Shown piece after piece: positions 43,302-46,900 of a stretch of 64,000 nucleotides of DNA (the stretch's first letter is position 1; every line of letters begins with the position of its first letter). Position numbers and translations under genes: made by a program. The notes below the pieces were generated by a model that worked only from the letters and a program-made list of their open reading frames with translations, had not been told where the DNA came from and ran no database searches. The stretch is taken from the NCBI GenBank assembly GCA_004022145.1, contig RCNU01000001.1; one strand, written 5' to 3'. Source of the stretch: Paecilomyces variotii. Its lineage: Eukaryota.

Positions 43302-44388
43302 TCCTGTTCCCATGTATCGAGCACGAGAAAAGATGCGGGTACGAATATTACGGATATCATGTCTGTTGCCTTTGTTTTCCCCCTGTTTCTGGTCCTGCCT
43401 TGTAAAGAGAAACCCGGCAGATGTCTCCCCGCTCGATGAGTGCATATCGTCATACCCTTCCGCACAGCCGATTGTATTTTTTTTTCCGTATTTATCTTCT
43501 TCTTTTCTTGCCTTGGCTTCCTGACAAGCCCTCTAAACGCATTGTAGTCCTCTTTGAGTGTTCGTGTCTATGTCTCTAATTCGATTGTTGCCCGTGGCGT
43601 TTTCCCGAGCGAACCGGTGTTGTCATAAATATTACCAATTACTCTCGATTGATAAGTGATGTTCAACAAAACTCGTCTACCATGTTTACTCCTCATTGGC
43701 TTGTCCATACAGCCGTTCTTGGTTATTGAGTTCCGTGTCTATTCCGCACTTCTAGTCCTCGGAAAACGAGATACGAGGGACATGTTCCTTCAGGGGTAGA
43801 AAAGAAAAACAAAAAAGTGAAGCGGGAAACTTTAAGATTGATCGTGTCAAACAGATATATACCAGTACATATTTAATAGTGTTGAGCGAGTGGTCATTGC
43901 TTTATATATCGTTGACAAAACGGGTACAATTGACATACAATTAATATATTCCCTAAAAAAAGACAGATGCAAGAACCAATCAGAACATCGCTATCTACCC
44001 AGGTAGGTAATTTTCCAAAACATTCTCGATCACAACATTGCCTCATTGTATATGTTTGCAAAGCATTGGAAACCTTGAAGAAGTTGCATTTCTTATTCTA
44101 CAAAACGACATGGGAATAGAATAATCTGATATTGATTCCTAACTTACGGCAAATGTGGCCTTGGCCAATGTTATTTATAGTTTACAGTAAGGATGACAGT
44201 CTTTTGAAGATGAAGTTTTAGTTTGGTTTCATTTTCATTCACTCGTTCTGAATTTTATGTGCCTGAAATAGCCCCCGTGTACACTTTTTTTTTGGATCCT
44301 TGCCCCCTCCTTCCTATTATTGCGTTCCAAGAAGCCTGATGTTTTTTTGGGTGGGAATCTAACGCTAGATGTTGATATGTGCAACTAT

Positions 44389-45627
44389 TTACAGACCCTT
44401 TGCCTTCTTGGCTTCAGTGATGGACTCCTTCAGAGCCGCAATGGCCTTGTCGATATCACCGCGGGCGGGGTCAGTGACGCTGACGCCCATGTGGCCGAAT
44501 CGGATGTACTTGGTGGCAATCTCCTTGTGAAGACCGCCAGCGAAGACGACACCGCGCTTGGCCAAGCCAGGGAGAACGTCCGCAGCAGCGATGCCCTCGG
44601 GGAGACGGATGGCAGTCATGGCGTGCGCCTGGTTCTCGGGCTTGACGGCCAGCTGGGTGAGACCGAGTTCGGCAACGCTGGCCTTGACACGGTCAGAGGC
44701 CTTGGTGTGCACGGCGAAGCGCTCAGCCATGTTTCCAGTGATCTGGGATAGAGTGGTGTGCAGAGCGTGGACGAGCTGAGTGGGAGGAGTAGCGAAGTAG
44801 GAAGGCTTGAGGGCCTCGTAGTTCTGCATGATGGGTAGCCAGTTCTTGAGGGAAGCATAGTAGGATCCAGGAGGGCTCTGGCGGGACTGGAAGCGGTTGA
44901 TGGCACGCTCAGAGAGCATCAGGATGCTCAGACCGGGAGGACAGCCGATGGCCTTCTGGCTGGCCGTCAGGACGACGTCCAGGTCCCATTGGTCGAAAGC
45001 GATCTCTTCGCATCCGACACTGCACACCCCATCAACGACGACCAGCGTCTCCGGGCTGACACGGCGGACAAGCTCAGCAATGGCCTTGATGTCACTCAAC
45101 ACTCCAGTAGAGGTGTCGACGTGCGTGATAGTAATAACCTTGTACGACTTCTGCTTCAGCGCCTGTTCAATCTCGGAGAGCGATGGTCTCTCGCCAATGG
45201 GAGCCTTGAGCTGCGTGACCTGCGCGCCGTAGGTCTCAAGACAGGCAGCGAAAGAGTCACCGAAGTAACCGGTGTGGAGGACGAGCGCATCCTGGCCCCT
45301 CTCGATCAGGTTCGACGACACGATATCCCATCCCAGAGTACCACTACCGGAGATGATCAACGGCTGCGAGGCGGGGTTGCTGGTCTGGAAGAGTTTCCGC
45401 AGAAGAGTCAATGATTCTCCAAAGACCTTGACGAAGGCCGGGCCAACGTGGCTCTCACTGATATAGAAACCAGACAGATCAGTATACCTTTCCCCCTCGA
45501 CAACCCAATGCTCAGGAGGGGTAATTCTCAAGACTTACGCATAGTGGGACATGGACTGCAGGACCGCATCGTCGAATTCGATGGGTCCTGGGATCAAGAG
45601 AGTGGAATGAGGGGCTTGGGATGACAT
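44389..45627 (-). CDS. AGX1: Alanine-glyoxylate aminotransferase (class V PLP enzyme), 2 exons
   Basis: MSSQAPHSTLLIPGPIEF, GSGTLGWD, THVDTSTGV, VVDGVCS, ASQKAIGCPPG (PLP Lys) and YIRFGHMG. Confidence 0.95.
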
Positions 45628-46900
45628 CCTGGCGTTTGATCTGGGCTGTCTGGATGGAGTTGCGGGGGATAAGGAGGAGATTGTTCGATCGATGGGTTTA
45701 TACTCTAGGTCGTCCGGTTCGACGGAGATCCTTTCGGTCGAGAAGGGCGTGTTGAGCTCGGGCAACGGTAGACGCTGCTCGAGGTGCCTGGAGATCAGGC
45801 TCAAGCGGCCAGTCGCCCGTGAGGACGCCAGTGTTCCGATCCGCGGCCCTCGACGGAGAGTCGCGGCGGGGTAGAATCGGAAGAGAACAAGGACGACGGC
45901 GCCTAGTTGGACTCGCTGCTGATTTGCAGGTAGAGACTGACTGGATGGTACTGAACAACGATCAAATAATGGAGGGAAAGAAAGATAACTACTATACTCT
46001 TCCGGTGACTCAATCGAGGGATATTATAAAAGGAGGCCTCTTTTTTTTTTTCTCACTAATCCAGGGGCGGTGGACTCCGGAACTCACATTCGGGAGTGCC
46101 ACCGCCTGCGGGGAGAACGAGGCGATGGCGATTCTACCTTGAAACAGCTAGATGTATACTCTAGTCAATCTTCATGTCGATTGACCTTGGTTCAATTATT
46201 GTTTTACAGTCTTCTGTCTCTGCATCTGTGGACAGTTCTAGTACATTGGGCTCTTATATATTGCGGATGGACATGCTGAGTGACTCACATAAAACATCCC
46301 GGACAGTCGAAGGAACATTAAAGCATATTTCTTTTTTCTTTTTTAAAAGGTTCTTTTCCCCTCATTCTCCAACTCCAGGACGGAAATGGATAATTCTTAA
46401 TGGCGCCATGGGTGCAAAAAATTTTTCTTTCTTTCCCGTCATGGAAGTATAAAACGACCGGATCTGAGAAAGCAGGATATCCCGGTAACTGTCTACAACT
46501 GCCATCTGCCGTTGTCGGAGGCTCACTTGCAATGATACGGGCCAATTATGATTAAAGTAAGCGCCTCTATCGGTGAGATTCAAAAATAGTAATTCACTTT
46601 CATAATAATTGTAATGATGATTACCATAGTTAGTCACATCGGAGAAACTTTTCCTGTGGCTGGATGCGGAGATGGCGCTAGTCCATTATAGTACTACGTA
46701 TTAGGGCTTAGGGTTCAAGTACTACGGATGCCAAGCCTGCCCTCGCAACTCCAGCGGAAGCTGCCTGGAAGCTCCGCCGTGGAGAGCTCGAAGGAGTAAA
46801 GTAGTAAGCAGTTGGACGTGTTCGCTGCTTCACCCTCGCTCTGTCTCATCAGCATTGGATGTCAGGAATGGGCCGTTGAGAAACTTGCGCAGGATTCACG

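Follow-up and report, generated by a model that had tools for sequence, protein, structure and literature searches.

A predicted CUG-initiated form of alanine-glyoxylate aminotransferase with an N-terminal PTS2 in Paecilomyces variotii and other filamentous ascomycetes

The aminotransferase gene and its leader

The stretch analyzed here, 64,000 nucleotides (nt) of contig RCNU01000001.1 of Paecilomyces variotii (GenBank assembly GCA_004022145.1; hereafter, the window), encodes on the minus strand a class V aminotransferase that is an orthologue of the fungal alanine-glyoxylate aminotransferases (AGT, AGX1-like), the activity itself being predicted. Upstream of the annotated ATG, the same frame remains open and encodes a conserved nonapeptide that matches the peroxisomal targeting signal type 2 (PTS2) and is preceded by a CTG. 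The leader with this peptide is part of the mRNA, the CTG is conserved at the codon level in related fungi, the coding signature begins at this CTG, and AUG is depleted between the CTG and the annotated start. These features suggest that a PTS2-bearing form of the enzyme is translated from the CUG, in addition to the short form. The locus comprises the following features.

46024-46026, minus strand: in-frame TAA, the upstream bound of the open frame, located just beyond the 5' ends of the transcript contigs
46026-45535, minus strand: translation of the open frame, *YPSIESPEE...LFRFYPAATLRRGPRIGTLASSRATGRLSLISRHLEQRLPLPELNTPFSTERISVEPDDLEYKPIDRTISSLSPATPSRQPRSNAR-MSSQAPH
45832-46019, minus strand: untranslated 5' leader before the CTG, at least 188 nt long and free of AUG in all frames, as judged from the contig ends, the lack of codon periodicity and the presence of frame-breaking indels
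45829-45831, minus strand: CTG, the proposed non-AUG start, in the context ggaACA-CTG-Gcg, with A at -3 and G at +4
45781-45807, minus strand: PTS2 nonapeptide RLSLISRHL, residues 9-17 of the CTG-initiated form, from the translation and conservation in orthologues
45730-45780, minus strand: conserved block EQRLPLPELNTPFSTER following the PTS2, consisting of near-invariant columns of alignment A1 and present across classes
45628-45729, minus strand: variable linker rich in Ser and Pro that joins the targeting module to the enzyme core, without AUG in any frame, from the sequence and alignment
45625-45627, minus strand: annotated ATG, the start of the short form (385 residues), in the context AGG ATG T; the identical public protein P0121 has 385 residues
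45539-45627, minus strand: core exon 1 (MSSQAPHSTLLIPGPIEFDDAVLQSMSHYA), from the translation and transcript contigs
45458-45538, minus strand: intron of 81 nt, GT..AG, with the joint 45457/45539 seen in the contigs of X10 and X12
44389-45457, minus strand: exon 2, class V aminotransferase, ending in the stop codon 44391-44389; PF00266 in P0121 and orthologues
44202-44214, minus strand: poly(A) addition sites, from plus-strand poly(T) loose ends at 44202 (X12) and at 44211 and 44214 (X10)

The identity of the enzyme is straightforward. P0121, source-named Paecilomyces variotii, is 100% identical to the window gene over exon 2, and PF00266 is precomputed for P0121 and for all the orthologues listed, many of which are source-named alanine--glyoxylate transaminase. 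The consensus of the type 1 peroxisomal signal (PTS1) is (S/A/C)-(K/R/H)-(L/M). The window protein ends in ...AKKAKGL, so that the terminal tripeptide -KGL misses this type, and the orthologues end in -KGL, -RKQ or -VRK. In PMC3338719, PTS1 is printed as S/C/A-K/R/H-L.

Upstream of the ATG at 45627, the open frame extends over 132 codons before it meets the TAA at 46026-46024, and no ATG is found in any frame of the minus strand from 45628 to 46088. Both this ATG-less frame and the departure of the -AKGL end from the canonical PTS1 had been pointed out in a preliminary description of the locus made from the sequence alone, and both hold under translation and a three-frame ATG scan. Among 5000 dinucleotide-preserving shuffles of the 396-nt leader, the frame was open in 75 and a stringent PTS2 match appeared in 30, with no shuffle combining the two; ATG was absent from all frames in 393 of the 5000. 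The observation is thus beyond chance, and the comparative evidence presented below is far stronger than these shuffle figures.

Transcripts of the gene were identified among the contigs of four metatranscriptome runs aligned to 44200-46700. Two contigs from two studies (X10 record 2 and X12 record 6) show the splice joint 45457/45539 and a poly(A) tail at 44202-44214, and they reach 46018 and 46019, respectively, with no further junction in the leader. Hence the mature mRNA contains the entire extension, with no upstream exon that would add an ATG. The preliminary description had singled out a transcription start downstream of 45800 as speaking against a translated extension; the contigs extend far upstream of this position. 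The X2 and X4 contigs lack splicing and extend through intergenic DNA, and accordingly were regarded as DNA-like and excluded from the transcript evidence. Another contig (X10 record 4; 46221-46552 of the window, depth about 9) has a plus-strand poly(T) loose end before 46221 and so marks, in this one study, a polyadenylated minus-strand RNA ending at 46221, probably the 3' end of the upstream neighbor gene. This RNA end leaves about 200 bp for the AGT promoter. The contigs differ from the window by single bases at 45678, 45889, 45959 and 33 further places in 44200-46700, which are presumably strain differences; the first of these replaces Ser with Pro in the variable linker, the next two lie upstream of the CTG, and the differences within the extension are too few to interpret.

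These transcripts bear on the possibility that the in-frame ATG comes from a rarer transcript, with another start site or an additional upstream exon, such that the PTS2 form would be produced by canonical initiation. Rare isoforms are beyond the reach of the contigs, ATG triplets do occur farther upstream (e.g., at 46089 in frame 0), and five public models (P0002, P0009, P0019, P0020 and P0021) reach far-upstream Met residues. However, the ATG at 46089 is directly followed by a TGA at 46086, neither poly(A) contig contains a leader junction, and the RNA end at 46221, seen in one study, leaves only about 200 bp of room upstream. The far-upstream Met residues of the five long models are unrelated, their N-termini are not conserved among each other, and they are probably artefacts of a forced ATG start. 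Furthermore, a hidden AUG would leave the codon conservation of the CTG unexplained, and this explanation appears extremely unlikely. An upstream exon consisting of the ATG at 46089 followed by GTGAGT was considered separately and rejected: the plausible acceptors, read by eye, give the wrong frame, and the contigs show no such junction.

The PTS2 peptide and the start codon in related fungi

The stringent form of PTS2 is R/K-L/V/I/Q-x-x-L/V/I/H/Q-L/S/G/A/K-x-H/Q-L/A/F. The nonapeptide RLSLISRHL matches both this form and the simple pattern, so that the exact consensus match asserted in the preliminary description is indeed encoded at 45807-45781. The simple consensus is printed as (R/K)-(L/V/I)-x5-(H/Q)-(L/A) in PMC7214817. 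Given the inferred CTG start, the signal lies close to the N-terminus, at residues 9-17, and in the ATG-type relatives it begins at residues 5-14.

A protein search with the extension and exon 1 yielded 338 matches at E<=0.01 among 1760 candidates, of which the best 120 are listed. The listed matches are AGT orthologues of 283-774 residues whose N-termini align to the window extension at 40-79% identity. A stringent PTS2, mostly RLSLISRHL itself, is found upstream of the LIPGP core motif in 91 of these 120 listed matches, as well as upstream of the core in 75 of the 80 metagenome loci described below, which is the conservation of RLxxxxxHL that the preliminary description had proposed to check. 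By source names, the classes represented are Eurotiomycetes, Dothideomycetes, Sordariomycetes, Leotiomycetes and Lecanoromycetes. All share the same design, namely, a short variable N-terminus, the PTS2, a near-invariant (L/I)NTP(F/Y)S(T/A)ER block, a variable linker and a conserved Met before xQxxHxxLLIPGP. In many orthologue models, a Met is located a few residues before the PTS2. Nevertheless, the peptide is often missing from the annotation: in the set of the 120 best orthologue models that contains P0121, 51 start at the core Met, 43 are truncated at the N-terminus, the PTS2 is included in 21, and the remaining 5 have an extension that does not match the pattern.

The R, L, H and L residues that define the PTS2 are among the invariant or nearly invariant columns of A1. 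The block that follows is made up of the invariant N50, T51, P52 and E56 and the nearly invariant F53, S54 and R57, and is conserved as strongly as the PTS2 itself across the five classes. We know of no role for a block of this type in PTS2 import. An example of a peptide within the predicted extension is LPLPELNTPFSTER. The strong conservation of this second block, together with the fact that peroxisomal import is predicted rather than observed, leaves room for an explanation under which the extension is translated from the CUG but serves in regulation, assembly or targeting to another compartment. Such a role seems quite unlikely considering that the nonapeptide fits the simple as well as the stringent consensus at the expected distance of 9-17 residues from the N-terminus, that its defining positions are invariant or nearly so, and that a fungal orthologue has been reported to be peroxisomal (PMC3338719).

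The strongest evidence for the start comes from the codon that precedes the PTS2. A1 was used to scan metagenome contigs, which yielded 80 loci with DNA. In 75 of these and in the window, the PTS2, NTPFS and LIPGP motifs occur in one open frame, which amounts to 51 distinct sequences (50 metagenome loci and the window); five loci were left out, four without a pattern match and one cut by the contig edge. The start residue was chosen by amino acid alone, as x-[L/V/M]-A-x located 4-11 codons before the PTS2 (about 25 in L066, where ACG CTG GCT lies farther upstream than in the other loci). The aligned codon is CTG in 34 sequences, GTG in 5 and ATG in 12, and Leu codons other than CTG are never found at this position. 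A purine at -3 and G at +4 accompany the CTG in all 34 cases. As a control, six conserved Leu columns were counted in these sequences; CTG accounts for only 69 of their 282 codons (24%), which indicates that synonymous sites are otherwise free to vary. It is therefore the codon rather than the amino acid that is kept, and its interchange with ATG and GTG is the mark expected of a start codon. The preliminary description had named this CTG (45831-45829), eight codons before the PTS2, as a codon in strong context, and both the context and the codon-level conservation, for which it had called, are evident in these sequences.

In alignment A1, the CTG-encoded Leu of the window shares a column with the annotated Met of P0015 (MASKLTKE-RLSL) and P0010 (MSTKSTQQ-RLSL). 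No in-frame ATG is present between the nearest upstream in-frame stop and the PTS2 in 44 of the 75 loci, and five NCBI models (P0006, P0007, P0013, P0016 and P0017) are filed as 'partial', with a first residue other than Met, so that the ATG-less state is not peculiar to the window genome. The comparative signal is unusually clean, with a start that appears to be interchangeable between ATG, CTG and GTG across the subphylum.

These comparisons also bear on the possibility that the extension is a relic, translated only in those relatives that have an ATG, whereas in the window the ATG has been lost and the open frame is a decaying 5' untranslated region (UTR). No AUG precedes the PTS2 in the window, the identical public protein is modelled as the short form of 385 residues, and, as indicated above, 51 of the 120 best orthologue models are equally short. 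Decay, however, would keep neither the CTG in 34 of 34 Leu-type sequences nor the purine at -3 and G at +4, nor would it preserve the third-position bias, the indels in threes and the depletion of AUG in all frames that are described in the next section. Moreover, the 44 ATG-less loci among the 75 belong to diverse lineages and yet conserve the peptide. A relic is thus very unlikely.

Coding signature, upstream stretch and short form

The window was aligned with the five closest loci (L001, L004, L005, L007 and L008), and differences were counted by codon position. From the CTG to EYKP (45831-45694), 37, 25 and 95 differences fall in positions 1, 2 and 3, respectively, of 230 each, and indels are of 0 or 3 nt. 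Core exon 1 shows the same kind of pattern, with 17, 8 and 60 differences of 150, 145 and 145, and no indels. Upstream of the CTG (45900-45832), there are 44, 52 and 57 differences of 101, 106 and 105, and the indels are mostly not multiples of three, with deletions of 0-15 nt and insertions of 0-8 nt per locus. The corresponding substitution rates are 0.16/0.11/0.41 downstream of the CTG versus 0.44/0.49/0.54 upstream. The third-position bias and indels in threes appear only from the CTG on, which places the beginning of the coding signature at this codon.

The stretch LFRFYPAATLRRGPRIGT upstream of the CTG is Arg-rich and free of acidic residues, as stated in the preliminary description, which on these grounds had proposed a possible mitochondrial presequence. 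The composition is confirmed by translation; the presequence is not supported in the window genome, where a usable start codon for it is lacking and the region before the CTG shows no coding signature. In-frame near-cognate codons in this region are limited to an ATT at 46014, about 5 nt from the contig end and with T at -3, and an ATC at 45840; none occurs from 46011 to 45841. Before the start, the median open length is 43, 18 and 45 codons in frames 0, +1 and +2, respectively (48 sequences), figures that are uninformative on coding. Given the scarcity of near-cognates, the lack of a coding signature and a frame 0 that is no more open than +2, the upstream stretch does not appear to be translatable in frame.

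A system of three forms, in which initiation farther upstream adds LFRFYPAATLRRGPRIGT as a mitochondrial presequence, would draw on its basic, acid-free composition, on the second in-frame ATG that in other lineages lies 21-32 codons upstream and encodes a basic segment, and on a Y-P-A/S-like motif that is in frame in 10 of 12 matches. For the window, this scheme is extremely improbable: there is no in-frame near-cognate between 46014 and 45840, codon periodicity is lacking, the indels break the frame, the openness of frame 0 does not exceed that of +2, and the conserved motifs TACCCCGCG and ATCGGAA vary in frame (L005, L007 and L009) rather than synonymously.

These motifs deserve a separate mention. 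TACCCCGCG or CCCCGCGG, at about 45873-45865, and ATCGGAA, at about 45843-45835 (both on the minus strand), are located just before the CTG and are kept without synonymous variation in L005, L007, L009, L011, L033, L049 and L066. The different frames in which they are found in L005, L007 and L009 suggest DNA or RNA elements rather than codons. The first motif includes CCCCGC, which we take to be the complement of a CreA-type SYGGRG site.

In other lineages, the upstream region is organized differently. A second in-frame ATG is located 21-32 codons upstream of the PTS2-proximal start in L060, L067, L068 and L072-L075, and the same arrangement is found in the Onygenales models P0001, P0003, P0004, P0011 and P0018. 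The segment starting with this ATG is basic and acid-free (e.g., MFAAPRLRLLAVNSRLQPRPS-M...), and the respective lineages look like Pleosporales, Sordariales and Onygenales. In these, the second upstream ATG may give rise to a mitochondrial form.

Between the first start and the core ATG, AUG is strongly depleted. The count was made on 48 of the 51 sequences, L050, L051 and L054 being left out because the core Met was found farther upstream. Across these sequences, only 5 ATG triplets in any frame are observed between the two starts versus 88.1 expected from shuffles, and 44 of the 48 have none. In the 12 sequences with ATG as the first start, none intervenes, compared with 20.2 expected, and none is present in any frame between the CTG and the core ATG of the window. 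In addition, A is found at -3 of the core ATG in 44 of the 48 loci. The depletion of ATG together with this A at -3 is the pattern that selection for leaky scanning would give, in which case both forms would come from one mRNA in each of these lineages.

Proposed mechanism and comparison with known systems

A single mRNA thus very probably gives rise, by leaky scanning, to a minor CUG-initiated form with a PTS2 and a major AUG-initiated short form. This mRNA would start at or just upstream of 46019 and carry a leader of about 390 nt without AUG. Scanning ribosomes would pass about 188 AUG-free nt and first meet the CTG at 45831-45829 in its optimal context. Non-AUG initiation uses the initiator Met-tRNA. 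A minority of ribosomes would initiate at the CUG with this tRNA and produce a form of 453 residues, M-ASSRATG-RLSLISRHL..., the PTS2 of which would be bound by Pex7 for import into the peroxisome. Most ribosomes would cross another 201 AUG-free nt to the ATG at 45627 and produce the form of 385 residues that lacks the targeting signal and is presumably cytosolic. The start, the PTS2/NTPFSTER module, the linker and the core Met are kept across filamentous ascomycetes, with ATG, CTG or GTG as the first start depending on the lineage. CUG initiation and its rate, Pex7-dependent import and the cytosolic location of the short form are the parts of this scheme that are predicted from the sequence comparisons. 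The near-cognate initiation of a PTS2 form beside the AUG form that was put forward in the preliminary description is strongly supported by the transcript and comparative evidence.

Several points weigh against this scheme. The 51 sequences share ancestry, and one metagenome series contributed many of them; the 34 CTG sites thus amount to fewer than 34 independent events, a weakness that the control Leu columns offset only in part. The ATC at 45840-45838, three codons before the CTG and with C at -3, could contribute to initiation. A start-enhancing hairpin after the CTG is not clear: the segment 45840-45740 has a folding energy of -36.4 kcal/mol (z = -1.80), a stability reached by 12 of 200 shuffles. 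The exact position of the cap and the existence of rare alternative transcripts are beyond what assembled contigs can settle, and peroxisomal import is deduced solely from the motif and its conservation. Finally, in Magnaporthe oryzae, the peroxisomal location of AGT1 has been ascribed to the C-terminal 46 residues and a C-terminal 'QKA', and not to an N-terminal signal (PMC3338719).

A more far-reaching possibility, which is speculative and rather doubtful as a whole, is that the first start codon (AUG, CUG or GUG) acts as an evolutionary dial that sets the peroxisomal versus cytosolic share of AGT in each lineage, from one AUG-free, leaky-scanned mRNA. Under this scenario, the Pleosporales-, Sordariales- and Onygenales-like lineages would add a third start with a mitochondrial presequence and thus serve three compartments, and the 'QKA' account of the Magnaporthe enzyme would need revision.

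Fungal peroxisomes make glyoxylate, the AGT substrate, via the glyoxylate cycle. A conserved N-terminal PTS2 that is omitted by most gene models would offer a simple, testable route for AGT into these organelles. If this prediction holds, a functional proteoform is absent from the annotation of many Aspergillus, Penicillium, Talaromyces and related genomes, and C-terminal tagging or expression from the annotated ATG would lose sight of the peroxisomal pool. The PTS2 peptide is already present in many public models where an ATG exists. No published text containing RLSLISRHL, no paper title on a fungal AGT PTS2 and no published account of the AGT PTS2 extension or of its CUG/GUG start was found in the literature searched, in which Kremp et al. 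2020 (PMC7214817) was the one relevant paper on a cryptic PTS2 reached from a near-cognate start. The main texts on the Histoplasma peroxisome proteome (PMC13343957) and on M. oryzae PEX7 (PMC3237427) do not contain the word 'aminotransferase', although their supplements, including 65 PTS2 candidates, may name the orthologue.

The closest parallel is Pgd1 of Ustilago maydis, in which a PTS2 in the 5' UTR is translated from AGG AUU at about 2% (Kremp et al. 2020, PMC7214817). Both genes have a PTS2 in the annotated 5' UTR, without an in-frame AUG and without alternative splicing, and a conserved near-cognate start yields in Pgd1 (PMC7214817), and would yield in AGT, a minor peroxisomal form beside a major cytosolic one from a single mRNA. 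The aminotransferase is a different enzyme in a different fungal phylum, with a single CUG in optimal context in place of the tandem AGG AUU (PMC7214817). The AGT start further differs in alternating between ATG, CTG and GTG across the subphylum, and the extension is longer (68 codons) and includes a second conserved block. Pgd1 is experimentally proven (PMC7214817), whereas the AGT case is known by comparison only. PMC7214817 mentions neither aminotransferase nor glyoxylate and describes a systematic search for further cryptic PTS2 cases as still to come; if confirmed, AGT would be the second case of peroxisomal targeting by non-AUG initiation. In the 2012 case cited in PMC7214817, an optional N-terminal PTS2 also accounts for dual location in the cytosol and peroxisome, but through splicing, whereas the AGT leader described here is unspliced.

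The non-AUG extensions reported in Neurospora crassa and other fungi (Ivanov et al. 2017, PMC5487733) are similar to the AGT extension in that near-cognate codons are conserved and are followed by coding-type conservation. The main text of PMC5487733 contains no aminotransferase, glyoxylate, 'peroxisom' or PTS2; its supplements may list an orthologue.

Among AGT enzymes, M. oryzae AGT1, which has been reported in peroxisomes and is required for metabolism linked to them (Bhadauria et al. 2012, PMC3338719), is likewise a fungal orthologue linked to peroxisomes. That work employed a model of 385 residues, no signal was obtained from full-length fusions with GFP at either end, and an N-terminal PTS2 is not considered in the sections of PMC3338719 drawn on here. 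Other Sordariomycete models start with MPRQ...RLSLISRHL. An unnoticed N-terminal PTS2 may therefore be the real signal of the M. oryzae enzyme.

The location of mammalian AGT1 depends on alternative start sites. Similarly, in the fungal gene, the location of the same enzyme activity would be set by the choice of the start site on one gene. The mammalian enzyme shows variable mitochondrial and peroxisomal targeting (Danpure 1997, as cited in PMC3798809), and its peroxisomal import proceeds via a C-terminal non-canonical PTS1 (PMC2120593). Whereas the optional N-terminal piece of mammalian AGT1 is a mitochondrial signal, the predicted counterpart in the fungal enzyme is a PTS2, reached from a non-AUG upstream start and combined with a -KGL end that is no PTS1.

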